A DNA stretch of 34,484 nt. Source: Methanoregula sp. (lineage in GTDB: Archaea > Halobacteriota > Methanomicrobia > Methanomicrobiales > Methanospirillaceae). Both the position numbers and the translations under genes were made by a program. A model generated the notes under the pieces. That model worked only from the letters and a program-made list of their open reading frames with translations. It searched no databases and was not told the origin of the DNA. The DNA lies in contig JAQWDG010000002.1 of the NCBI GenBank assembly GCA_028705545.1, forward strand, positions 4,208 to 38,691. Direction: 5' to 3'. This document shows, one piece after another, positions 13,763-26,676 of this stretch. The stretch's first letter is position 1. Every line of letters starts with the position of its first letter.

Positions 13763-13971
13763 ATCTTATGTGCCGGGGTAGTTATTAACGCTGATGCAAA
13801 CGGCCATAAGGCCGTTTTTTTGTTGTGTGTCCCCATCGGCATTACGCCGAAAAACGACAGGGGATCCATAAAAAAACACGATCCCCGGGAAAAAACTGCG
13901 GACCCGGTCTTCCTTTATCCTTACGATTATATAGTCCCGGCTGCAATTCCCACGTATCAAAAGGTGCTTTG

Positions 13972-14250
13972 ATGCCAACCCATGTGAACGGGAAAGACAA
14001 AGGACAGGTTATGTTGTATGCGCTCTCGACCTGCCAGTGGTGCCATAAGACGAAGGTGCTGCTCGAATCGCTTGGTATTGCGTTCGATTATGAATATGTC
14101 GATCTGCTCGAAGGAAAAGAGCAGGACGATGCCATGGCAAGGATTGAGCGTTGGAACCCGGCCGGATCGTTTCCCACGATCATTATCGGCGACGACCGAG
14201 CCATTATCGGTTTCCACGAGGACGAGATACGGGAGGCGTTTGGTGCATGA
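13972..14250 (+). CDS. Glutaredoxin-like protein (methanoredoxin-like)
   Basis: LYALSTCQWCHKTK active-site CxxC and SFPTIII cis-Pro motif. ATG 13972 is preferred over the ORF-track start at 13825. Confidence 0.9.
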   Translation: MPTHVNGKDKGQVMLYALSTCQWCHKTKVLLESLGIAFDYEYVDLLEGKEQDDAMARIERWNPAGSFPTIIIGDDRAIIGFHEDEIREAFGA

Positions 14251-14759
14251 TGCCGGGTATCACTGAGGCGGAGATTGATGCGGCGTATTCGGCCTACAAG
14301 ACCGATGCGGAGAAGAACGGCTACCGGCTGAACCCGGATGTGGAGTTTGTCAAAAACCTTATCCGCGGCCTCTTAAAGAACGGGCAGCGCTACGGATACC
14401 GGGCCTGCCCCTGCCGGCTTGCATCAGGAATTAAGGACCAGGACCTCGACATTGTCTGCCCCTGCGATTACCGGGACAGCGATATCGAGGAGCACGGCGC
14501 CTGTTACTGCGCCCTGTACGTGAACGAGGCCATTGCCTCGGGAAAGCAGAAGGTCGCACCCATTCCCGAACGCCGGCCGCCCCGGTCCGAACGTATGAAA
14601 GCCGGTTCGATCAAGGTCGCGTCAGCGACCGAGCGCCCGGTCTTTCCCCTCCCGGTCTGGCGCTGCAAGGTCTGCGGGTATCTCTGCGCACGCGAGCAGC
14701 CGCCGGGGATTTGTCCGATTTGTAAGGCGACGAAGGAGCGGTTTGAGAGGTTTGTGTAA
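14247..14759 (+). CDS. Ferredoxin:thioredoxin reductase catalytic domain fused to C-terminal rubredoxin (ferredoxin:disulfide reductase)
   Basis: FTR motifs CPC...CPC...CYC, then WRCKVCGY...CPICK rubredoxin-like domain; ATGA overlap with the glutaredoxin stop. Confidence 0.9.
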   Translation: MMPGITEAEIDAAYSAYKTDAEKNGYRLNPDVEFVKNLIRGLLKNGQRYGYRACPCRLASGIKDQDLDIVCPCDYRDSDIEEHGACYCALYVNEAIASGKQKVAPIPERRPPRSERMKAGSIKVASATERPVFPLPVWRCKVCGYLCAREQPPGICPICKATKERFERFV

Positions 14760-14868
14760 TTTTTTATTTTGTTATAGGACTGCTTGGGAATGGAACTTGA
14801 AGTACATTGATGCACGGATGAGATTTCAAGTCCAGATCGATACTCTTTGCTTTTGATTTAGAGGGCAA

Positions 14869-16056
14869 TTATTCATTAAACAATTTTGAAAATATTCTTT
14901 GCAATACAATATGTTCAAGAACTTCACGATATGCAGAAGCAGTGTCACATTTTTCAACTAACTTTAAAATATTTGATTTATCTTCTAAAGACTCCCCCAT
15001 TGATTTTATGAGATTTGTATCTATGAAATCTGATGATGCCTCTTGAATTATATTGATATTGCTTAACACCAAGGCTTTGAACTCATTCAAATCAATTTCA
15101 TCATTAATAATTTCCATAATGTTTTCTATCTGTTGTTCTGATGTAAAGAAGTCAGTATATGATTTTTTTAGTTTGCTTTGAAATTTATTTACTGATTCGA
15201 TACTCTCGAATTTTTGGTTTTGATCCTTGTAATTTAATTGTAAGTCTATTACAGGTTTCGAACTTTTTCGTCCTCGTGGAAAAATTAACTCTTTAATGGC
15301 TCTAAATGAGTCAGGATCCTTTCTCAACTCTCTAAAAAATTCCACGTACGTGATATTAGGGTCAATGCAACCCTTTATCCATTCAATAAATTTTGAATAA
15401 TCTACATCATTGGGGTAATGTTTGTTTAGTGCAAACTGAAAGAATGCTTTAAAACTTGTCTCTCTTGAGATTATTTGTTTGATAGTGGTTAAATACAACT
15501 GAATTTTTGAGCTTACCTTTGTTTCCAATCTCGATAAATAAAATTGATACACCCCCAAAAGGATCCCTAACACGGTAATTGCCTGATAAAAATTACTGGT
15601 AAAATGATATACTAAAATATTAAAATGTAAACCGAAGATATTTATTACTAAATAACACAATCCAAACCAACTAATCCAAACGATTAATAAGGGAAATAAT
15701 TCATACGATACATTAAAAAAGAATTGTTTAAAGATTGCAAGAAAAATGTTTTTTAAGGGGAAATTAATTGATTCATTGTTCTTACAGTCTTTGACACATT
15801 TTTCATCATCTTTCTGTTTTTCTGATTTGCTTAGTTTTTTCCGGTTAAATAAGAGCGAAATGAAGTTACTTTTTAATATCAATAATGAAATAATAAAGGC
15901 TGAAATGTAAATTATTGAAATCCAGACATTAAAATTTTCAATTAGCAAATAAAAAATACCTGCTAGAATCAAATTTGCTATTACAAATGAAATTAATTCT
16001 AAAAATTTCAAGTACCTCAGAAAATTTTCTGTAAAATATTTTTTTGAAATTTCCAT
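14869..16056 (-). CDS. Orphan membrane protein (about 4 N-terminal TM segments plus soluble helical region) in an AT-rich island
   Basis: An ORF of about 395 codons stays open in DNA of roughly 25-30% GC, which is unlikely by chance; hydrophobic stretches lie in the N-terminal 180 aa. ATG 16056 or GTG 16065. Confidence 0.8.
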   Translation of the reverse strand: MEISKKYFTENFLRYLKFLELISFVIANLILAGIFYLLIENFNVWISIIYISAFIISLLILKSNFISLLFNRKKLSKSEKQKDDEKCVKDCKNNESINFPLKNIFLAIFKQFFFNVSYELFPLLIVWISWFGLCYLVINIFGLHFNILVYHFTSNFYQAITVLGILLGVYQFYLSRLETKVSSKIQLYLTTIKQIISRETSFKAFFQFALNKHYPNDVDYSKFIEWIKGCIDPNITYVEFFRELRKDPDSFRAIKELIFPRGRKSSKPVIDLQLNYKDQNQKFESIESVNKFQSKLKKSYTDFFTSEQQIENIMEIINDEIDLNEFKALVLSNINIIQEASSDFIDTNLIKSMGESLEDKSNILKLVEKCDTASAYREVLEHIVLQRIFSKLFNE

Positions 16057-16305
16057 CCCGCTCACTAATTATGCATTTCTATGCGAGATGATAAAATTTA
16101 CTTTGATCCTTATACCCCTTGGTTTATTTTAATGGAATCTAGGATTTTTCCGGATTAGCATGTCTTCGTTGAGGCTGCGATTTTCTTTTTGGGGCAAGAC
16201 ATGTAATTGATCCGCCGCGGGGGCACCCCGTCGGGGGCGGCGGCGTTCCTCGCATTGGGTCATCCCTGTGAGAAAACCTTCATCTCACCCCATCCCCCAC
16301 ATAGA

Positions 16306-16637
16306 ATGAATCCCGGCAAAGGTGACCTCCCACGTCCAATACCCTTGAAGTACTCGTCGAAAAGCTCCTGGATGATAATGAAGGGACGCGGTGGAATGCA
16401 GCAGAAGCGCTGGGCCGGCTCGGGGACCTGCGGGCCGTGGAGCCCTTGATCGATACCCTCTGGGATGACGATGAACGGGTGCGGAAAAAAGCTGCCTGGG
16501 CTCTTGGCATACTCGGGGATCCCCGGGCCCTTCCCCCCTTACAGAGACTCTACCGGATGGAGCGGGAGGATGCCCGGGACATCATCCAGGAAGCAATGGA
16601 TATGATCAAACAGGGCATAGCCGAAAAGATGGAGTGA
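16306..16637 (+). pseudogene. HEAT/PBS-lyase repeat protein with a frameshift near the N-terminus (or an assembly indel)
   Basis: The frame from 16341 reads TLEVLVEKLLDDNEGTRWNAAEALGRLGDLRAVEPLIDTLWDDDERVRKKAAWALGILGDPRALPPL (two HEAT repeats). It is closed upstream by TGA 16323-25; ATG 16306 is in another frame. Confidence 0.7.
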
Positions 16638-16851
16638 GTGAGTACCGTGCTTCCCGGTCGCCCCCCTTTGCAGCGGGAGTGCGGCTCATGGGGATATGGG
16701 GCGACAGCACCCGTTTGCATGTTACTGTTTCCAGGCCGGAAACTGCAAACCTGCTGTACGGTTTTTCTTAAAAAAGAGCGGATCGGTTGTTTGAGGATTT
16801 TTAAAAAAAAGATCGGGCCGCGGGCCGGCACTTTTAAAAAAAAAAACTAAT

Positions 16852-17178
16852 GGTCACCGTGACCAGTAAAAAAAACGGTCACCCCCTACCCCTTACTTTG
16901 CACGCAACAAAAAAACTGGTCGGGTCGACCGATCTCAGTGATCGGTCAGGGTGACCACACTTCTTCCAGTACCGCGACCTGCGTTTCCCCTGGAACTTCA
17001 GACGAGAAGGGGTGGTCACCCTGACCGTACTCGATCAGAGGTCGGGGTGACCGATCTTTGACATTGGTCGGGTCGACCATGGATCCATGCGGATTTTCGG
17101 TCACCCCCTACCCCCAACTTTGCATGCAACAAAAAAATAGGTCGGGTCGACCGATCTCAGTGATCGGTCAGGGTGACC
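16852..17178. repeat. Array of eight 13-bp palindromes GGTCR-NNN-YGACC
   Basis: Copies start at 16852, 16918, 16944, 17014, 17040, 17066, 17140 and 17166; degenerate half-sites at 16877, 17099 and 17235. Confidence 0.9.
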
Positions 17179-17242
17179 TCTTTTATTCCAGTTTCCCGAC
17201 CGGTGTTTCCCCTGGAATTTCAGATCAGGTTGGTGGTCGCCC
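16876..17242. repeat. Imperfect direct repeat of about 145 bp, copies offset by 222 bp (16876-~17021 and 17098-~17242)
   Basis: Both copies read CGGTCACCCCCTACCCC..ACTTTGCA.GCAACAAAAAAA..GGTCGGGTCGACCGATCTCAGTGATCGGTCAGGGTGACC...TTCCAGT...GTTTCCCCTGGAA.TTCAGA...GGTGGTC.CCC. Confidence 0.9.
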
Positions 17243-17382
17243 CCTTCCCATGTCCCGCACAAAAGGGGTAGGGGAGGGGCCGGACGCGGGACAGGGGGAT
17301 ACCCCCGGTCCCCTCTTTTCCCACCCGGGTGTCCTGCCCCCATCCAAATACTAAAAATACCGTTTCCACCAACCTGTTATGC

Positions 17383-17721
17383 ATGAGTGATCCCGTCACG
17401 GTCGAGATTGTCGGCCTGAAATACTCGTCCTGCTCGCCGTTCCCCTGCGATGCAGACCGCACCTGCGGCCTCTCCGAATGCCACCCGTCAGGAAGACTCA
17501 CGAAAGCCTTCGATGCCCTCAGTGCGGTATTAAAAGAGACCTACGGCGACAAAGTAGATGTCAGGCTCACGCTCATCGACGACAACGTGCCGGACCACAT
17601 CCGCGCAATCCTCGAAAAGGACTATCCCCCTATCCCCATGGTCCTCGTGAACGGCAGGCTCACCCGGATCGGCAGGATCGCCCTCGACCGAATCAAAAAC
17701 GAGATCGAACAGTGCCGGTAA
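17383..17721 (+). CDS. Small thioredoxin-fold-like protein with a Cys-rich N-terminal loop
   Basis: VTVEIVG then CSPFPCDADRTCGLSEC, a helix, V.V.L, and the cis-Pro-like PIPMVLVNG motif; ATG 17383. Confidence 0.7.
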   Translation: MSDPVTVEIVGLKYSSCSPFPCDADRTCGLSECHPSGRLTKAFDALSAVLKETYGDKVDVRLTLIDDNVPDHIRAILEKDYPPIPMVLVNGRLTRIGRIALDRIKNEIEQCR

Positions 17722-17737
17722 GAGGCACCGTCTTTTT

Positions 17738-18319
17738 TTAGCAGATCCGGCTCAGGACCCCGGTACCGAGATCGTAATAAAGCCCGTGAACCCCGATCTT
17801 CCCCTCCGCCACGGCATTTTTTAAGAGCGGGTAGGTGTGCAGGTGCTCGATCTGGAGCCGAACGTTCTCCTGCTCGATAAGCCGGTAGCGTTCTTCCTGT
17901 TCCTGCACGGTAGTTGGGGGAGAGATATTCTTGTCCACCCGGGTCTTTGCATCGCGGGCATTGTTGAGCCAGAGCGGAATATAAGCGTCTGTACTCTCGT
18001 GATCCAGCGCCCGGATCGCCCCGCAGTTCGAATGTCCGCAGATCACCACGTCGCTCACGTGGAGATGGGAGACCGCATATTCGAGCACCGTTGCAAAGTT
18101 CCAGTCATGGATTGGCACAATGTTCCCGATATTGCGCTGGATAAAAAGTTCCCCGGCTTTTGCCTGGGTAATATGACCGGTCTGTAACCGCGAATCCGAA
18201 CACCCGATCCAGAGCACGGTCGGGTGCTGCGCGTTTACCAGTTCGCGGTAGTGGTCGATATTCGGCGTAAAATCGGATTCGCGGAACTTGTAGTTTCCCA
18301 AAAGAAGGTTGTCGATCAT
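17738..18319 (-). CDS. can: Beta-class carbonic anhydrase
   Basis: Zn ligands in WIGCSDSR and CGHSNCGAI, GELFIQRNIGN, VLEYAV..L, HGLYYDL.TG; ATG 18319. Confidence 0.93.
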   Translation of the reverse strand: MIDNLLLGNYKFRESDFTPNIDHYRELVNAQHPTVLWIGCSDSRLQTGHITQAKAGELFIQRNIGNIVPIHDWNFATVLEYAVSHLHVSDVVICGHSNCGAIRALDHESTDAYIPLWLNNARDAKTRVDKNISPPTTVQEQEERYRLIEQENVRLQIEHLHTYPLLKNAVAEGKIGVHGLYYDLGTGVLSRIC

Positions 18320-18650
18320 CAGCAATACCTCATGCACACACAATGAAAAGCGGCAGTCCTCACCCCACCGCCTGTATGGAGACTCCATTCCGGGCTATCA
18401 TAAATATTGCTATTTATCCGGATAGGAAATACAGGGAAAATCCGGGACTGTTTTGACCGGTACAGCCCGTATTGCCGGTAAAAAGCCGGGCGGGCTGACC
18501 GCACACGGGGGTATGGCCGCCGTAATCCCTGGTCCCCCAGATATCGTACCAACCCGGCGTTGCATTGTTGGGTACTACCCATTAAAAACAAAAATCAGGG
18601 CCCGCCCAGCCGGAAATCACCTCAACCTATAAGCTGGATCAGGAAAAATA

Positions 18651-19380
18651 ATGGAGGACTCATAAAATCCGCCCGGGCCAGGATGCCCCCGGCCGGACCG
18701 GGCAAGGTTTCATCATCTACCAGCAGGAGCAGTATAGTACGCCAGCAACGACCTGTGAACACTATTCGTCCGTACCGGGTGAAGACACCACCCTTCTTAC
18801 CCTTTATGCCCTGGCCGGGGAAGAGAGCGGGGGCTTTGTCACCTTCCGGCCCCGTCTCTTCTCGAAGATCCAGCGGCATTTCTTTACGCCGGTCCGCGCC
18901 GCTGCACTTCCCGTTGCCGGCCCGGTTACGGTACGGGAACTCTCGTCGCACGAGCTTGTCCGTGCCGAGGACGAGCTCTGGATCCACTACCACCAGCAGA
19001 AGGCCGATGCCGCAACCGACCGGCTCTTTGCCGCCTTTGCCGGGACACAACTTGTAGGTGTAGCCCGCTGCTCGCGCCACCCGGACGGCCTTGAGGTGGA
19101 CGGGGTGTACGTGCTCGACGAGTACCGTCTCAAGGGTTTTGCCCGCTCGATCATGAAGCAGCTGATCGAAGAGTGCGGCAGGAACGAGACGTTGTACATG
19201 CATTCAAAGGTCGAGCTGCAGGAGTTCTACGGGAGTATGGGATTTTATGCAATCCCGGAACCCGCACTGCCAAAGACCATCCGGGACCGGTTCGGGTTTG
19301 TTATGGGGAACCTCCAGGGAATCGATGTCTGCCCGATGAAACGCGACCCGTCCGCGGCGGATGCGGAAAAGAACAACTGA
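18651..19380 (+). pseudogene. GNAT-family N-acetyltransferase with disrupted start (one extra base shortly after ATG 18651), or assembly indel
   Basis: Frame 18652-19380 is open and reads ...RLFAAFAGTQLVGVARCSRHPDGLEVDGVYVLDEYRLKGFARSIMKQLIE...FYGSMGF (GNAT motifs), but has no ATG/GTG/TTG before 19096. ATG 18651 is out of frame and stops after 4 codons. Confidence 0.65.
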
Positions 19381-19501: not shown

Positions 19502-21451
19502 ATGATCGAACTGCTCTTTTTCCTCATCCTCGCGTTATTCACCCTCGGGACGGTAGTCCCCCTTGCCGGGGCCAAAGGTGACCGCCGCAGCATCCGGGTC
19601 TTCTCCCTTGCCTGTACCGGGGCAGCATCCGCGCTCCTTGCCGCCTTTGCCCTCCTTGTCATTATCCCGGGAACAACGTTTGCCCTTCCGCTCTGGCAGC
19701 CGTTCCCCGGCATCTCCCTTGATCTCTATGTGGACCGGCTGGGGGCCTTCTTCCTCCTCCTGATAGGCACGGTCGCCGCATGCACGGCGGTCTATTCATC
19801 AGGATACACCGAACACATGGAGGGCGGGAACCGGAGGAACATCCTCTGCGGAGGCACGGCCCTCTTCGTGCTGGCCATGACCCTTGTGGTCGCCTCCCAC
19901 AACACGTTCTCGTTCCTGTTCTTCTGGGAGCTGATGGCCGCGGTCTCCTTTATCCTTGTGATGTACGAGTACAGGGACCCCGGAACCACAAAAGCCGGGA
20001 TCTACTATTTCGTGATGACCCAGCTCTCGACCCTCTTTGTAATGCTCGGGGTAATCGCGCTCTTCGTGCTCACGGGGTCGTTTGCCATGGCCCCTCTTGC
20101 CATCACCCCCGCCTCTGCACCGCTTGCAACGGCCGCATTTTTGGCCCTCTTTTTTGGCTTTGCCATCAAGGCCGGGATCATCCCCTTCCACAAGTGGCTC
20201 TTCTTTGCCCACCCGGCAAGCCCGTCGCCGGTCTCTGCGCTCATGTCCGGGGTCATGCTCAAGGTTGCGGTGTACGGGCTCCTCCGGTTCATCCTCGATG
20301 TATTCTCTCCCGATCTCTGGTGGGGCGTGCTCATCCTCGTCTTTGGGATCGCCTCCGCGGTTCTGGGCGTGATCTATGCCTTCAAAGACCACGACATCAA
20401 GGGGCTCCTTGCCTATTCGAGCATCGAGAATGTGGGGATCATCTTTACCGGCATCGGCCTCTTTGTGATCTTCTCCTGCGAAGGGCTTACTCTCCTTGCC
20501 ACCATCAGCCTGCTTGCCGCGCTCTTCCATTCCCTCAACCACGCGCTCTTCAAGAGCCTGCTCTTTCTTACGGCAGGTTCCGTGGTGCACGCAACCGGCA
20601 CCCGGGACATCGAGAAGATGGGCGGCCTTGCAAAGAACATGCCGTATACCTCGGTGCTCTTCTTTACCGGGGCCATCGCCATTGCCGCCCTCCCTCCGTT
20701 GAACGGGTTTGCAAGCGAACTGCTGCTCTATATCGCGTTCTTCCATTCGGTCACGGTCGTCGACCCGCTCTTAAAAGTGCTCCTCTTCATCTGCCTTGCC
20801 CTCTTTGCCCTGACAAGCGCCCTCTCGGCGGCCTGCTTTGTCAAGGCGTTCTCATCGGTCTTTCTCGCCCAGCCGCGCTCGGATGCGGCAACGGGCGCAC
20901 ACGAGGTATCCCGATCCATGCTTGCCGGCCCGGCAGTCCTTGCCGCTGCCTGCGTTCTCCTCGGGGTCTTTGCCTGCCAGATCTTTATCGCTGCCGGTTA
21001 TGTCATCCCCTTCCCGGACCTGCTCCTCGTGAGCATCCTGCTCCTGTTCATGGCAGGGCTCACGTACCTTGTCCTGTATTTCACCGCATCACGTGAAGCG
21101 AGAATAAGCGAGACCTGGGGCTGCGGGACGAAATCGCAGTCGGCGATCACGGAATATACCGGCCACGGCTTCTCCGAGCCGATTGTCACCATCTTTGCCT
21201 CGGTGTACCGCACGAAAAAGTCCAGTACAAAGACGTACTCCGACAAGTACAACTGCCTCTTTGGCGGCGGAACGGCGGAGATACGGCTCGTGGCGTTCTT
21301 CGAGGAATATATCTACCGCCCCATAGGTACGGCGGCAATGAAAGGTGCCACCATTGTCGCACGGATGCAGAACGGCTGCCTTGACACCTACCTGCTCTAT
21401 GTCTTTATCGCGGTAATCGGGGTCATCGTCTTTTTGGGGGTAATGGCATGA
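19502..21451 (+). CDS. hyfB: Hyf/Ehr complex antiporter-like membrane subunit (HyfB/EhrA; NuoL/MrpA-D family)
   Basis: Multi-TM; FWELM, KAGIIPFHKWL..AHP, MLKVAVYG, LAYSSIEN, NHALFKSLLF, PPLNGFASE, WGCG; ATG 19502. Confidence 0.9.
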   Translation: MIELLFFLILALFTLGTVVPLAGAKGDRRSIRVFSLACTGAASALLAAFALLVIIPGTTFALPLWQPFPGISLDLYVDRLGAFFLLLIGTVAACTAVYSSGYTEHMEGGNRRNILCGGTALFVLAMTLVVASHNTFSFLFFWELMAAVSFILVMYEYRDPGTTKAGIYYFVMTQLSTLFVMLGVIALFVLTGSFAMAPLAITPASAPLATAAFLALFFGFAIKAGIIPFHKWLFFAHPASPSPVSALMSGVMLKVAVYGLLRFILDVFSPDLWWGVLILVFGIASAVLGVIYAFKDHDIKGLLAYSSIENVGIIFTGIGLFVIFSCEGLTLLATISLLAALFHSLNHALFKSLLFLTAGSVVHATGTRDIEKMGGLAKNMPYTSVLFFTGAIAIAALPPLNGFASELLLYIAFFHSVTVVDPLLKVLLFICLALFALTSALSAACFVKAFSSVFLAQPRSDAATGAHEVSRSMLAGPAVLAAACVLLGVFACQIFIAAGYVIPFPDLLLVSILLLFMAGLTYLVLYFTASREARISETWGCGTKSQSAITEYTGHGFSEPIVTIFASVYRTKKSSTKTYSDKYNCLFGGGTAEIRLVAFFEEYIYRPIGTAAMKGATIVARMQNGCLDTYLLYVFIAVIGVIVFLGVMA

Positions 21452-22389
21452 GCGCCGACTTTGTCCTCTACTGCATCCTCAACACGGCGGTCGTCGTCCT
21501 CATCTCCCCGCTCTTTGTGAGCCTCGTAAAGAAAGTCAAGGCGTGGACGCAGGGGCGGCAGGGCCCGTCGGTCTTCCAGACGTATTACACGCTCGCAAAG
21601 CTCCTCAGAAAAGAGACGATCTATTCGCCCCATGCCTCGTGGGTCTCCCGGGTCGCACCGGTTGCCTGTATGGCGGCGATCCTTACCGCCTCCCTCTTTG
21701 TCCCGCTTGTCTGGGTCACGGAACCGTACGGCGGGATAGGAAACATCATCCTGTTCCTGTACCTGCTCGTGGTGGCCCGGTTCTTCATGGCGCTCCTCGG
21801 CCTCGATGCAGGGAGCGCATTTGGGGGTATGGGCAGTTCCCGGGAGATGAGCGTATCGGCGGTTATCGAGCCCACTACCATCGTGGTCTTTGCCGCGCTC
21901 GCCTTTGTTTTTAAGACCCTCAACATCTTCGACATGATGGCAGCCGCGGTCTCTGCAGGGACTCTCAAGACCCCGATCCTGATCCTCCTTGCCATTTCGC
22001 TTTTCATTATCCTGATCGTCGAGACTTCAAGGATCCCGGTCGACAACCCGGAGACCCATCTCGAACTGACCATGATCCACGAGGGCATGATCCTCGAACA
22101 GTCCGGGAAGAATCTCGCCCTCATGGAGCTCTCTGCGGCCATAAAACAGACGCTCCTCATGGCGCTTCTCATCAACCTGATCGTGCCCTGGGGCATTGCA
22201 ACAACGCTCTCCGCTGCCGCCATCCTCGCGGCACTTGTCATCTTCCTTGTCAAAGGCTGCGTACTCTCCCTTGTCATCGGGACTTTCGAGTCTTCGATGG
22301 CAAAGATGCGGTTCTTCCGCCTCCCGGGTCTTTTCATGATGGCGTTCTTCTTCTCGACCTTAATTGTCATTATCGAGGTGTTCGCATGA
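21448..22389 (+). CDS. hyfC: Hyf/Ehr complex NuoH-like membrane subunit (HyfC/EhrB)
   Basis: KVKA..QGRQGP, GLDAGSAFGGMGSSRE, ETSRIPVDNPETHLELTMIHEGMILE.SG; ATGA overlap. Confidence 0.92.
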   Translation: MSADFVLYCILNTAVVVLISPLFVSLVKKVKAWTQGRQGPSVFQTYYTLAKLLRKETIYSPHASWVSRVAPVACMAAILTASLFVPLVWVTEPYGGIGNIILFLYLLVVARFFMALLGLDAGSAFGGMGSSREMSVSAVIEPTTIVVFAALAFVFKTLNIFDMMAAAVSAGTLKTPILILLAISLFIILIVETSRIPVDNPETHLELTMIHEGMILEQSGKNLALMELSAAIKQTLLMALLINLIVPWGIATTLSAAAILAALVIFLVKGCVLSLVIGTFESSMAKMRFFRLPGLFMMAFFFSTLIVIIEVFA

Positions 22390-23078
22390 CCGATCCCGCG
22401 TTCTTCGACGGTGTCATCAAGATCCTCTTTGTCTGCGTGCTCATCACGGCCGCGTACATCATCACGACAAAGAACCTCATCTCACTTGTACGGGTCTACT
22501 CGCTCCAGTCGCTGGTGCTCGTTGCTATCGCCACAGCCCTCTTCTGGCGCGAAGGCGCGGCAGTCCTTGCCGGGATTGCGGTTGTGACCCTGGTCACCAA
22601 GGTGATCGTTATCCCGTATTTCATCGCGGCAGTGCAGGAGAAGATCCGGATTAAGCGGGATATCGAGTTCCACTACCTGAGTCCGACCAGTTCGCTGTTC
22701 ATCTCAATCGCGCTCATGCTCGTCATCTACATCGCGCTCTCGAACGTCCTTGCAGGCACGCCGGCGAAAGGCAGCCTCTTTTTCTTCGGCGCGGTGATCG
22801 GGCTCTCCCTTGTCCTCATGGGCATGATGGTCACCTTCTCCCGGAAAAAGGCCATCACAAAAGTGCTCGGTTACCTCTCGATGGAAAACGGGGTGCTCCT
22901 CTTTGGTCTCTTTGCAACCGAGCTGCCGTTCATCATAGAATTCCTGATCGTGATCGACCTGATCATCCTCGTGATCCTGACCACCATCCTCACGATTGGG
23001 ATCGACTCAACCCTTGAGGAATACCATAACCGGCTCCACCGGTTCTATCTCTGGGAAGAGCAGGAGGAGGCGCCATGA
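22386..23078 (+). CDS. hyfE: Hyf/Ehr complex membrane subunit (HyfE/EhrC)
   Basis: Y.LQS, TK...IP, GYLSMENG and E....D motifs; about 7 TM; ATGA overlap. Confidence 0.88.
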   Translation: MTDPAFFDGVIKILFVCVLITAAYIITTKNLISLVRVYSLQSLVLVAIATALFWREGAAVLAGIAVVTLVTKVIVIPYFIAAVQEKIRIKRDIEFHYLSPTSSLFISIALMLVIYIALSNVLAGTPAKGSLFFFGAVIGLSLVLMGMMVTFSRKKAITKVLGYLSMENGVLLFGLFATELPFIIEFLIVIDLIILVILTTILTIGIDSTLEEYHNRLHRFYLWEEQEEAP

Positions 23079-24559
23079 TCCTGCTCGCCTATGTGCTCTG
23101 CGCTGCCATTGTAATCGCCTGCATCGCCTTCTGCCACACCCACCGGCAGATGAATGCGGCAGCCCTCGGGTTTGGCGCTGCCTGCGCGGCGATTACGGGA
23201 TACATCCTCATCTTCGTACAGGTGCCGGTCGGGACCCTTATTGTCGGGAACGGCTACTTCTTTATCGACCACTTCGGCCTCTTCGAGGTCGCCGTGGCAA
23301 CGGCCATTTTCCTTCTCGCCGCCGTATATGCCCGGGGGTACGTGGAGAACCTGATCATAAGCCACGAACTGGAAACGGGAAGCCTCAAACTCTTCTACGG
23401 GGCCTGGTGCCTGCTCGAACTGGTTATCGTCCTTGCCTTCTATTCGGACAACCTTGCGCTCTTCTGGATCTTTGCCGAGATGACCACGATCATCTCCGCG
23501 ATGCTTGTCGCTATCCTCTCGGCAAAGGAGAACATCGATGCTGCGCTCAAGTACATCTTCGTTGCCTCGGTCTCGATGCTCATTGCCTTTGCCGGGCTCA
23601 TCTTCCTCTTCGAGATTGCACGCTCGACCACAGGTACGGGCTCCCTCAACTGGACGGTGCTGATCCAGCAGGCACCCGCGTTCCCGCCGGGCATGGCGAT
23701 CGCCGCATTTGCCCTGATCTTTGTCGGGTTTGCCGCAAAATCGGGTATCTTCCCGTTCCACACCTGGCTTCCCGAGGCCCATGCAAAAGCCCCGTCCGCG
23801 GTGAGCGCCGTCCTCTCCGGAGTCCTCCTGAATGTAGGTATCTACGGGATCATCCGGGTCTTTGCCATCGTCCACCGGACCACGGCTGTGGCAACTGCAT
23901 CCCTGCTCGTCCTCTTCTTTGGGGTCTGCACCATCGGGATCGCGGCGATCTCGATGCTCCCCGAGAAGAACCTCAAAAAAATGATCGCGTTCTCGAGCAT
24001 CGAGAATATGGGCATCTGCCTTGTCGGCCTTGCAGTCGCAACCCCGCTCGCACTTTTCTGGGTACTCTTCCACGTGATGGCCCACGCGTTCACGAAAGCC
24101 TCGCTCTTTTTCTCGGCCGGTATCCTGCACCGGCAGTACAGGAGCCACCTCTCGGCAGATGCACCCGACGAGATCCGGGACGTGTTCCGGTTCCAGCCGC
24201 TGGCTGCGTGGGGGATCATCATCGGGGGTCTTGCCATTATCGGCATGCCGCCGTTTGCGGTCTTCTTCTCAAAATTCTTTATCCTGCTCTCGCTCGGGTC
24301 GCTCTCCCTCTGGGTGCTCGTTCTTGTCCTTGCACTTCTCTTTGTAGCGGCCGCAGCTCTCGGGTACTTCGTGATCCGGTCGTTCTCCCGGGTTACTCCC
24401 GAAGGCGAGCCGCTGGACCTTGTGCCCTACCAGACGCCGCTCGCCATGAAAGCCCCGATCGTGATCCTGCTCGCGGCAGTCCTCCTGCTGGCATTCCTTT
24501 TCCCGATGGGAGGCACCGCCTACTTTGACCGGATCGTTGCGGAGCTGATGTTTATATGA
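23075..24559 (+). CDS. hyfF: Hyf/Ehr complex antiporter-like membrane subunit (HyfF/EhrD)
   Basis: WIFAEMTT, AALKY, KSGIFPFHTWLPEAHAKAP..VSAVLSG, FSSIENMG, HAFTKASLF, PPFAVFFSKF. Confidence 0.9.
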   Translation: MILLAYVLCAAIVIACIAFCHTHRQMNAAALGFGAACAAITGYILIFVQVPVGTLIVGNGYFFIDHFGLFEVAVATAIFLLAAVYARGYVENLIISHELETGSLKLFYGAWCLLELVIVLAFYSDNLALFWIFAEMTTIISAMLVAILSAKENIDAALKYIFVASVSMLIAFAGLIFLFEIARSTTGTGSLNWTVLIQQAPAFPPGMAIAAFALIFVGFAAKSGIFPFHTWLPEAHAKAPSAVSAVLSGVLLNVGIYGIIRVFAIVHRTTAVATASLLVLFFGVCTIGIAAISMLPEKNLKKMIAFSSIENMGICLVGLAVATPLALFWVLFHVMAHAFTKASLFFSAGILHRQYRSHLSADAPDEIRDVFRFQPLAAWGIIIGGLAIIGMPPFAVFFSKFFILLSLGSLSLWVLVLVLALLFVAAAALGYFVIRSFSRVTPEGEPLDLVPYQTPLAMKAPIVILLAAVLLLAFLFPMGGTAYFDRIVAELMFI

Positions 24560-26148
24560 CCGGAACTCTTCCCCACCGTGAAGATGCAGCGTCGAAGGCC
24601 ATCCGTGAAGTCCTTGGAGGGGATGCCCCTGCCCGGGCCACGCGGGGGCCCGGTGGCGAATGGTATGTACCGGTGGATAAAAGCAGCTTTGAACGGGCGA
24701 TCCCTGAGATTGCAGCGCGCAAGTTCGTCCTCATCAGTCTCTTCTGTGTTGAAGGGTTCTCACCGGAGAGCAGGCATTCCCTCCTGTACGTTCTCGAAAG
24801 GAAAGGAAGCATCCTTGTCCTTGTCCGGGCGGTTGCCGGCGGTCAGGCAACCTCGGTTGCCACAATTTTTCCTTCGGCTGCATGGCCGGAGCGCGAGTGC
24901 CGGGACGGTTTCGGGATCGGATTTACCGGCACATCCGATACCCGCAGGCTCCTCCTTCACGAGCCATACCCAAAGGATTTCCACCCGCTTGATAAGGCGT
25001 TCACAAACGCACCGATCGTGACCAATGACGATGTCCCTGCTGCGGACGAATACCCGTTTAAGGCAATGACCGGGGAGGGCGTGTACCAGGTCGCTGTAGG
25101 CCCGGTCCACGCCGGCATCATCGAGCCTGGGCACTTCCGGTTCAGCGTAATTGGTGAGACCGTCTTCAACCTCGAAATACGGATGTTCTACACCCATCGG
25201 GGGATCGAGAAACTCGCCGAGGGAAAGTCCACGGAGGACTGCGTGAAGGTTGCCGAAGCCGTGAGCGGCGACGAATCGGTGGCAAACGTAACCTCGTTCT
25301 GCATGGCTGTCGAGCGCCTCTCGGGGATTACCGTCCCGGACCGGGCCTGGTACCTCCGGACTATCCTCTGCGAGCTGGAACGATGCTGCTCGCACCTCGG
25401 CGACGAGGCAGGGATGCTCACCGATGTTGCCTTTGCCCTGGGTTCAAGCCAGTTCTCGGTGCTCCGCGAGGAAGTTTTCCGGAAGAACGCGGAACTGACC
25501 GGTTCCCGGTTCCTCCGGGGAATGACCTGTATCGGCGGCGTCTCCCGGGACATCCCGAGAGACCGGCTCGCAGACCTTGCAGAATTTGTCGGGCAACTCA
25601 GGAAACGATTCCGGGTTGGACTCTCGATCGTCCTGTCCACGCCATCGGTGATCGACCGGTTCTCGACCACCGGGGTAGTAAAGCGCGAACTCCTCCGGCC
25701 GCTCAACATCACCGGCCCGGTGGCCCGGGCATCGGGCGGCAGGGTCGATGTCCGGCTCGACCACCCGTACGGCGTGTACGACCGGTTCGTCCCGGTTCAT
25801 ACCCCCATTGCCGATGGAGACGTGCTCGCCCGGTTCACGGTAAAGGCACAGGAATTTCTCGACTCGCTTGACCTCATCGAACGGCTCATTGCTGCAATTC
25901 CGGAAGGGCCGGTACAAAGCAACGAGCCGGTCCGGGATGGGTATGCGCTTGCCCTTGTCGAATCGGCCCGGGGCCAGAACCTCTGCTGGGTCAGGGTCAA
26001 AGACGGAAGGATCGACCGATACAAGGTCCGAACCGCCTCGTACTGCAACTGGCTGGCCATCGAACATGCGGTACCGGGGAACATCGTCGCCGACTTCCCG
26101 GTGATCAACAAGAGCATGAACCTGTCCTATGCCGGGACGGATATGTGA
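24556..26148 (+). CDS. hyfG: Ehr large subunit (HyfG/HycE-like NuoC+NuoD fusion) lacking NiFe-binding CxxC motifs
   Basis: NuoC-like W.ERE..D.FGI.F; VGPVHAGIIEPGHFRF, Y.HRGIEKL, VES.RG. The L1 site reads VSGDES and the C-terminus reads DFPVINKSMNLSYAGTDM, which is Ehr-type. Confidence 0.9.
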   Translation: MTGTLPHREDAASKAIREVLGGDAPARATRGPGGEWYVPVDKSSFERAIPEIAARKFVLISLFCVEGFSPESRHSLLYVLERKGSILVLVRAVAGGQATSVATIFPSAAWPERECRDGFGIGFTGTSDTRRLLLHEPYPKDFHPLDKAFTNAPIVTNDDVPAADEYPFKAMTGEGVYQVAVGPVHAGIIEPGHFRFSVIGETVFNLEIRMFYTHRGIEKLAEGKSTEDCVKVAEAVSGDESVANVTSFCMAVERLSGITVPDRAWYLRTILCELERCCSHLGDEAGMLTDVAFALGSSQFSVLREEVFRKNAELTGSRFLRGMTCIGGVSRDIPRDRLADLAEFVGQLRKRFRVGLSIVLSTPSVIDRFSTTGVVKRELLRPLNITGPVARASGGRVDVRLDHPYGVYDRFVPVHTPIADGDVLARFTVKAQEFLDSLDLIERLIAAIPEGPVQSNEPVRDGYALALVESARGQNLCWVRVKDGRIDRYKVRTASYCNWLAIEHAVPGNIVADFPVINKSMNLSYAGTDM

Positions 26149-26157
26149 GGAAAGAGT

Positions 26158-26676
26158 ATGGTCAATGCATTTTCCTGTCTGGTAAAAAGGAAGGTGACCG
26201 ACGAGCACCCGGCAAAGAACGAAGAGATCGAGAAACTGGGTGCTGAGATCAAACGGGAGATCGATGCCCGGTTCGGCCGCAGCCTTGCGATCCGCGAACT
26301 CGATGCCGGCAGCGACAACGCGGCCGAGATCGAGATAAACAACCTCTCGAATGCTTACTACGATGTCGAACGCTTTGGCATTGCGTTCGTTGCGTCCCCC
26401 CGGCATGCGGATGTCCTGCTCGTGACCGGGGCAGTCACCCACAACATGGAAATTGCGGTGAAAAAAACCTACGATGCCATGCCCTTCCCGAAGTTTGTAG
26501 TGGCGGCGGGTGACGATGCCTGCGATGGCGGGATCTATAAAGGGACCTATGCAGTCCTCGGGGGCGTGGACAAGGTACTGCCGGTCGATCTGATAATCCC
26601 GGGCAATCCTCCCACACCGGCACAGATCCTTGCCGGTCTGCTTGCGCTCATGAAGAATGCGGGCAAAACCCGGTAA
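26158..26676 (+). CDS. hyfI: Ehr small subunit (HyfI/NuoB family) with all four canonical [4Fe-4S] Cys replaced
   Basis: GRSLAIRELDAGSDNAAEIE, YD.ERFG..FVASPRHADVLLVTG, VVAAGDDACDGG, VD..IPGNPPTP; the NuoB scaffold is otherwise intact. Confidence 0.9.
   Translation: MVNAFSCLVKRKVTDEHPAKNEEIEKLGAEIKREIDARFGRSLAIRELDAGSDNAAEIEINNLSNAYYDVERFGIAFVASPRHADVLLVTGAVTHNMEIAVKKTYDAMPFPKFVVAAGDDACDGGIYKGTYAVLGGVDKVLPVDLIIPGNPPTPAQILAGLLALMKNAGKTR

Follow-up and report, generated by a model that had tools for sequence, protein, structure and literature searches.

An Ehr-type operon of Methanoregula and its relatives whose small subunit lacks the four cysteines of the proximal iron–sulfur cluster

The stretch of DNA analyzed in this study, hereafter the window, comprises 34,484 nucleotides of a Methanoregula sp. 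contig (JAQWDG010000002.1) and carries a six-gene operon of the Ehr type, hyfB-C-E-F-G-I, at positions 19502–26676 of the forward strand, with hyfI as its terminal gene. The genes and the sites within them are as follows.

19502..21451, + strand: hyfB (ehrA-like), antiporter-type membrane subunit of the NuoL/MrpA family (PF00361/PF00662; PRK08667 above its cut-off)
21448..22389, + strand: hyfC (ehrB-like), NuoH-type membrane subunit with the acidic loop intact (PF00146)
22386..23078, + strand: hyfE (ehrC-like), small membrane subunit (PRK11492, E 2e-19, under its cut-off)
23075..24559, + strand: hyfF (ehrD-like), antiporter-type subunit (PRK08676 above its cut-off)
24556..26148, + strand: hyfG (ehrL), large subunit, a NuoC+NuoD fusion without NiFe ligands (PF00329/PF00346; alignment to HycE)
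25255..25278, + strand: remnant of the RxCGxC motif, reading EAVSGDES; Arg lost, first Cys now S237 and second Cys now E240
26116..26142, + strand: remnant of the C-terminal DPCxxC motif, reading MNLSYAGTD (S524 and G527, 86/86 each)
26158..26676, + strand: hyfI (ehrS), small subunit of the NuoB fold, a short form without an N-terminal ferredoxin domain; last gene of the operon
26314..26316, + strand: D53, former ligand 1 (GAC); immediately precedes helix 55–62 (AlphaFold2)
26323..26325, + strand: A56, former ligand 2 (GCC); a small residue that varies among relatives
26515..26517, + strand: D120, former ligand 3 (GAT); in the first turn of helix 119–123 (AlphaFold2)
26521..26523, + strand: C122, a non-ligand Cys (TGC), ancestral and dispensable
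26605..26607, + strand: N150, former ligand 4 (AAT)

The 172-amino-acid open reading frame of hyfI (26158–26676, +) matches PF01058/NuoB in a profile search. Its ligand register is fixed by alignment to Escherichia coli HycG (7z0s_G, E 8e-30), in which GGCNGCEIE, GACGN and PGCPP stand opposite GSDNAAEIE, GDDAC and PGNPP of HyfI. The initial annotation of this stretch had claimed that all four [4Fe–4S] cysteines are replaced and that each replacement requires at least two base changes; this alignment and the codons confirm the first claim for D53, A56, D120 and N150, and the codons are as given there, each two bases away from TGY. C7 and C122 are encoded by TGT and TGC, respectively. At the third site, the Cys-bearing Ehr small subunits L186, L187 and L189–L191 read GDCG or GDCA and L188 reads GECA. 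An AlphaFold2 model of HyfI based on a 27-row alignment retains the NuoB fold (pLDDT 85) and superposes on MbhJ (6cfw_J) with TM scores of 0.74/0.88 and an r.m.s.d. of 2.0; HycG and PSST/NuoB of complex I were also matched. HyfI has the profile and the flavodoxin-like fold of the PF01058 NuoB/HycG/MbhJ family, and the four cysteine ligands of the proximal/N2 [4Fe–4S] cluster are absent.

The initial annotation had named uniqueness to this assembly as an outcome that would refute its claim; the substitutions were looked for in relatives and are not unique to this assembly. Across 91 related loci, hereafter the clade, Asp occurs at position 53 in 91/91 and at position 120 in 90/91, Asn occurs at position 150 in 89/91 (Asp in the other two), and Cys is never present at position 56 (0/91), where T (50), A (32), P (7) and V (2) are found. 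The best 120 of 7986 database matches, in which the organism names are mostly Methanoregula, retain D53 in 120/120, D120 in 115 (E in four and V in one) and N150 in 117, with A, T or V at position 56 in every case. Among the best 80 of 134 loci from GTDB genomes, which span Methanoregula, Methanosarcina, Methanoculleus, Methanofollis, Altiarchaeota, Aenigmatarchaeota, Nanoarchaeota and Dehalococcoidia, D53 and D120 are found in 80/80 and N150 in 79/80. Variation at the acidic sites over the 91 loci is synonymous only (GAC 69 and GAT 22 at D53; AAC 46 and AAT 43 at N150), barring three Asp/Glu/Asn exchanges. Furthermore, the dN/dS of hyfI is the lowest among the six operon genes, with medians of 0.088 (281 pairs) and 0.062 (199 pairs) obtained from non-independent pairs with dS near saturation after saturated pairs had been dropped. 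Many anaerobic archaea and bacteria share the cysteine replacement, and it is under purifying selection.

The occurrence of the variant is patchy: it was found in 19 of 36 genomes of the same genus, in one of 24 other genomes of the same order, in eight of 151 genomes of a draw from the phylum, in nine of 201 Chloroflexota and in four of 201 genomes drawn around G196, one of these four with an internal stop. It is the sole NuoB-like gene found in a 0.7-Mb bin of Aenigmatarchaeota and in one bin each of Nanoarchaeota and Altiarchaeota, which are incomplete genomes. Cultured Methanosarcina carry it at six loci (L063, L067, L068, L072, L079 and L086), and MA4368–MA4373 of M. acetivorans are presumably the same operon; MA4368, annotated as NADH dehydrogenase subunit N, decreased on hdrED repression. 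At L184 (G421:C7:27499–27951), a small-subunit match of the clade contains one internal TAA at a locus in which no large subunit was found, and is possibly a pseudogene or an assembly error.

Stranded RNA reads were found on the sense strand of the operon in a relative, G232, which is not the organism of the window, in two runs (X6 and X7) of one study; most of these reads are 90–95% alike and hence come from another strain. The depth is 40–69× over most of hyfB, 2–12× over hyfG and 1–3× over hyfI. Run X3 holds almost no operon reads and X1 is a contig, and neither informs on expression. The low read depth over hyfI in G232, together with the patchy presence within the genus and the internal TAA in one of the four Nanobdellota matches (G421), might suggest a small subunit that is a relic, in decay or mis-assembled. 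However, its dN/dS of 0.06–0.09 is the operon minimum, its frames are intact in several phyla and it forms a single well-supported clade; the probability of a relic is negligible, and decay of the small subunit is excluded. The earlier view that sequencing error or decay is unlikely is borne out by the conservation in relatives and by purifying selection.

The large subunit shows a parallel loss. In the alignment of HyfG to HycE, EAVSGDES lies opposite DRVCGICG and NLSYAG opposite DPCYSC, so that the RxCGxC and DPCxxC motifs of group 4 [NiFe]-hydrogenases, as well as their ferredoxin subunit, are missing. The Arg of the RxCGxC motif contacts the proximal/N2 cluster. This residue, ahead of the old NiFe motif, is present in 0/83 clade loci versus 19/20 four-Cys operons, the one four-Cys operon without it being L169, and it is retained in three of five operons of other Cys-poor lineages. 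The clade also has an invariant set consisting of H185, H193, D239, E240 and R472, and the H185/E190/H193 loop is nearly invariant. H504, considered as a further clade-specific residue, was dropped because L188 and L190 also carry it.

The charged residues of the membrane subunits are intact. The hyfB frame is open from 19436, with ATG 19502 as the likely start, and E165, K245, H365, K373 and E428 of HyfB (numbered from 19436) are conserved in 76–81 of 78–81 clade loci; E192, D199, H204, E206, E212 and E217 of HyfC are present in 77/77 and E167 of HyfE in 78/78. The TM12 residue of HyfF is Lys400 (24272–24274). Readable clade loci have Lys at this position in 72/78, Glu in five and Arg in one, and Glu is found in 13/13 readable loci of other Ehr/4f-type systems; most of the clade has exchanged Glu for Lys here. 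Lys is the state of MrpD and NuoN at this position. The set of six genes is complete in 75 of 86 loci, the remaining 11 being cut by locus ends, and the order hyfB-C-E-F-G-I is kept in 74 of these 75. The exception, L083 from Altiarchaeales, has a second, partial copy (14290–19316), approximately 4 kb downstream of the full operon, in which an intact, membrane-only hyfB-C-E-F is not followed by hyfG or hyfI.

No ferredoxin-type (NuoI/HyfH) subunit or domain was found in the operon, and no conserved Fe–S or ferredoxin gene lies within 3 kb of it in 86 loci; the six ferredoxin-motif matches in these regions are mutually unrelated, and two of them are off-frame inside the operon. Profile searches found no MrpE-, MrpF- or MrpG-like genes in the operon, and Pfam searches found no DUF2309 (DabA) or CupA family among its proteins. 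The operon has the hyfB-C-E-F-G-I gene set and the NiFe-ligand-free, group 4-related large subunit of Ehr systems, and it lacks the cysteines for an N2-type Fe–S cluster in the small subunit, a trait stated for Hyq that stands outside the Ehr definitions in the available portions of the literature. The main point extends beyond the small subunit: judging from the sequences, the entire six-gene complex lacks every known redox-cofactor motif. The same genome also carries, on C307, an Ech-type pair with all cysteines present, and the Ehr operon is therefore an additional system.

The neighbouring genes differ between lineages. A β-carbonic anhydrase gene upstream of the operon (window 17738–18388, −) is syntenic in 13 of the 32 Methanoregula-type loci L031–L062 and also occurs in two four-Cys loci, and was found in 0/54 searched clade loci outside L031–L062. 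This restriction looks like descent within one genus, and carbonic anhydrase was rejected as a fixed partner. Directly upstream of hyfB, a GNAT acetyltransferase-like frame (window 18652–19380, +) is open, yet its first ATG/GTG/TTG occurs only at 19096; the gene is kept in 25 of 80 loci from several Methanomicrobiales genera. The segments 13825–14759 and 17329–17721 of the window (+) contain a glutaredoxin-like gene, a ferredoxin-thioredoxin reductase/rubredoxin fusion and a small Cys-rich open reading frame, an upstream cluster that is syntenic in many Methanoregula loci. Window 14869–16065 (−) holds a 398-amino-acid orphan frame, rich in Lys, Ile and Asn, with membrane-like stretches, a composition unlike that of its neighbours and no Pfam match. 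Downstream of hyfI in approximately 20 Methanosarcina loci (L066–L097) are look-alikes of a winged-helix regulator, a sensor kinase and a P-type ATPase, as judged by sequence appearance alone. A scan that took in 40 of the 80 listed neighbours and some extras found no conserved flanking gene common to all lineages; since the neighbours are unrelated between lineages, the six genes look self-contained.

Since none of the four cysteines remains and anaerobic archaea and bacteria alike have kept the change, the complex likely has no redox cofactor and would transport ions without electron transfer; it is very probable that HyfI binds no Fe–S cluster. Single Asp ligands to Fe–S clusters exist, and we know of no cubane that is held with none of its four cysteines. 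A complex that is still a redox system, with an O-ligated Fe–S or Fe site on D53, D120, C122 or E57 or with an external soluble electron partner, is very unlikely. It would agree with the presence of Cys at position 122 in 90/91 clade loci, with the detection of SufBD in four of five host genomes tested and with the redox role assumed for Ehr in the available portions of the literature. (The proposal that the small-genome hosts lack Fe–S assembly is unsupported, given the same SufBD count.) However, position 56 is A, T, P or V and never a ligand, the adjacent Arg is lost and the operon has neither an acceptor site nor an electron wire. C122 was rejected as a rescue ligand, since 32 of 85 four-Cys relatives also have Cys at this position, which is thus ancestral, and since it is missing in some members of the clade (V in L021/L145 and Y in P0123); furthermore, the small subunits of P0127 and P0134 contain no cysteine at all. 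A cluster assembled through C122, which the initial annotation had named as an outcome that would overturn its claim, is unlikely.

A separate Chloroflexota lineage (L156–L158 and L163) has lost three or four of the small-subunit cysteines, with its large subunit keeping NiFe-type cysteines and, in three of the four loci, the Arg. N-terminal ferredoxin motifs are kept in L174 (6939–10140), L175 (8932–12603) and L177 (7039–10849), and L176 belongs to the same lineage. The cluster sites of this second Chloroflexota lineage read D/C/E/D, D/T/E/D, D/C/E/S or D/A/D/D, and the electron wire, as far as the motifs tell, looks cut mid-way. The retention of ferredoxin motifs and NiFe-type cysteines beside D/C/E/D-type sites favours a surviving redox role; against this, HypD was found in just one of four genomes of this lineage, which are incomplete.

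Loss of the cysteines has recurred. From 150 small-subunit representatives at 50% identity, 114 were readable and comprised 85 four-Cys, 15 Cys-free and 14 partial sequences, many of the partial ones probably being broken ends. The Cys-free sets are DADN, DAAD, SEGD, NEGD, NEGN, SAES, SVGN, DVDD, DVDS, DIDD, DEDS and DDDS. All 15 full-length Cys-free representatives have D, S or N at positions 53 and 150, and 12 of them have two or three carboxylates in differing arrangements; P0166 has none at the four sites. In a small-subunit tree with the ligand columns masked (128 rows and 125 columns, quick method with SH-aLRT support only, 32 of the 150 representatives being excluded owing to gaps), the clade forms one group (99) nested in a four-Cys group (95), and at least five changes of Cys state are forced. 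A large-subunit tree (50 rows, likewise by a quick method with SH-aLRT support only) places the clade, with a support of 100, among Ehr/4f-type large subunits and forces at least three changes; archaea and bacteria are intermixed within the clade, a sign that the cassette has moved horizontally. A single origin of the loss is unsupported by either quick tree; L184 was excluded owing to gaps as well. In these trees the cysteines were lost on at least three occasions, and the acidic or polar residues that took their place differ between them.

The explanation that best accounts for these observations, to which we assign about an even chance, is that the Asp and Asn residues of HyfI replace the charge of the cluster and that the complex is a cofactor-free, Mrp-like secondary ion exchanger. 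This reading is based on the loss of the cysteines, NiFe ligands and Arg, the ferredoxin-free operon, the intact charged residues of HyfB, HyfF and HyfC, the selection on hyfI and the recurrent loss. D53 and D120, at helix starts, would accept the backbone NH bonds formerly made to cluster sulfurs, so that carboxylates and amides would cap the helices where cluster sulfur once bonded; two carboxylates would match the −2 charge of the oxidised [4Fe–4S](Cys)4 site, and this charge replacement would hold the arm in one state. The arm loop (H185/E190/H193) and the HyfC loop could then serve as a scaffold and a protonation-sensitive gate. Inward movement of H+ through one antiporter-like subunit would drive Na+ or K+ through the other, as in Mrp, for pH or ion homeostasis, Na+ or K+ being a guess as the transported ion. 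The operon has no MrpE/F/G-like genes, and the Na+ path of Mrp therefore cannot simply be assumed. Of the earlier suggestion of targeted repurposing, the filling of the cavity is the part that best fits the data; the binding of a non-redox cation or small ligand is somewhat unlikely, given that position 56 varies and that independent losses use different residue sets. Several points stand against an exchanger: the arm, with H185, H193, D239, E240 and R472 invariant, shows stronger conservation than a merely passive scaffold would seem to require and would fit a ligand site equally well; P0166 has no carboxylate at the four sites; three of five other Cys-poor operons retain the Arg and the four-Cys operon L169 lacks it; the only mutant data on the family, from the four-Cys Hyq of Azorhizobium, were read as H2 oxidation and evolution; and a purely non-redox account leaves unexplained the other Cys-poor lineages that keep NiFe-type cysteines and a ferredoxin domain.

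The invariance of the arm is relevant to another explanation, somewhat unlikely in our view, in which the old Fe–S and NiFe pockets have become a site of carboxylate, Arg and His residues for a non-redox cation or a small anion (CO2/bicarbonate or formate). A protolytic reaction catalysed or sensed by this site would drive or gate ion translocation, as in CO2 pumps of the DAB or CupA type. The explanation stands chiefly because of E240, an invariant residue newly gained where a NiFe ligand used to be, and of the invariant His/Arg/Asp set: D239 and E240 are present in 83/83 clade loci and Glu occurs at position 240 in 0/25 Ehr/4f-type rows outside the clade, with H185, H193 and R472 likewise fixed. 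D53, D120 and N150 are maintained across phyla, and the β-carbonic anhydrase gene upstream in the window and in the 13 Methanoregula-type loci is consistent with such a site. The four-Cys, ferredoxin-fused Ehr operon of L141 (2091–15795) and L142 adjoins a formate channel, formate dehydrogenase, carbonic anhydrase and a second hydrogenase-like operon, the first three of which also favour a rebuilt site. However, carbonic anhydrase is absent from the searched clade loci elsewhere, the small subunit has no Cys/His set typical of Zn, the independent losses use different replacement residues with position 56 variable, and DUF2309/CupA is absent from the operon. A broader form of this proposal, which we consider unlikely, holds that the relined cavity (D53, D120, N150, D239, E240, H185, H193 and R472) would bind a cation or CO2/bicarbonate/formate and couple protonation to ion pumping through HyfC and the antiporter axis, with Ehr generally being non-redox. 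If this were true, the recurrent loss of the cluster would imply that Ehr complexes in general, including the 'hydrogenases' of methanogens, Dehalococcoides and rhizobia, are not redox enzymes.

Within the superfamily of complex I and group 4 hydrogenases, the N2/proximal cluster is considered almost invariant. The present cassette, which is widespread, under selection and horizontally moved, retains the coupling and ion-channel apparatus without a redox-cofactor motif, and it is thus a natural test of whether this apparatus can function without electron transfer and of the role of Ehr complexes. Its presence in cultured Methanosarcina makes deletion and purification feasible. In addition, metabolic models should not count these genes, which carry hydrogenase or NADH dehydrogenase annotations, as H2 or ferredoxin oxidoreductases.

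The Ehr family already has a name, and its defining trait is the loss of the NiFe ligands; in the available portions of the literature its function is unresolved and a redox role is assumed. As described there, it likewise has six genes in the order hyfB-C-E-F-G-I, a NuoC/D fusion and a large subunit free of NiFe ligands. Those descriptions mention loss of the NiFe ligands only, with a NuoI–NuoB fusion in some members, the GSU and Mhun proteins being compared here by description alone; the present clade differs in that its small subunit is without a ferredoxin domain and retains none of the four Fe–S cysteines. No description of a cluster-free Ehr small subunit was found in the available portions of the literature, to which Marreiros et al. 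2013 (PMID 23000657), Coppi 2005 and most supplements (e.g. PMC6349859) did not belong, and the portions of PMC6258894, PMC3144371 and PMC12361115 contained nothing relevant to it. Hyq of Azorhizobium caulinodans has the same six subunits, a short HyqI and a HyqG without CxxC pairs (PMC3357923, PMC2650096), and the available text states that all HyqI orthologs keep four cysteines and an N2-type cluster (PMC3357923). The Hyq mutants, of the four-Cys type and the only mutant data on the family, were read in those texts as affecting H2 oxidation/evolution and H2 recycling, although the authors doubted the NiFe site (PMC3357923, PMC2650096). The rhizobial plasmid operons L186–L191 have the same gene order where annotated and keep the four cysteines, the Arg and the HyfF TM12 Glu, whereas the present clade does not. 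In Dehalococcoides mccartyi, a 'Hyc hydrogenase' is listed as a hydrogenase and Hyc was detected in the proteome, according to the portions available (PMC8516407, PMC6113397). The Dehalococcoidia loci L092, L106, L107 and L110 carry the cluster-free operon, and we infer that this Hyc is the same operon.

Among solved structures, the best matches in both sequence and fold are E. coli HycE/HycG (7z0s) and the MBH of Pyrococcus furiosus (6cfw), which hold NiFe, a proximal [4Fe–4S] cluster and ferredoxin subunits, whereas the present complex is without those motifs. Respiratory complex I has at least 11 subunits, including NuoA, I, J, K and N, and a tandem CC in NuoB; the present complex has six genes and no CC. 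The DAB/CupA inorganic carbon pumps have a Zn-binding DabA (DUF2309) or CupA, neither of which is in the present operon. The Mrp Na+/H+ antiporter is redox-free, with two antiporter-like subunits and MrpE/F/G, and has no NuoH or NuoBCD arm. The present complex differs from Mrp in having NuoH and the NuoBCD arm and in being without MrpE/F/G, and resembles it in its MrpA/MrpD-like subunits with conserved transmembrane Glu and Lys.
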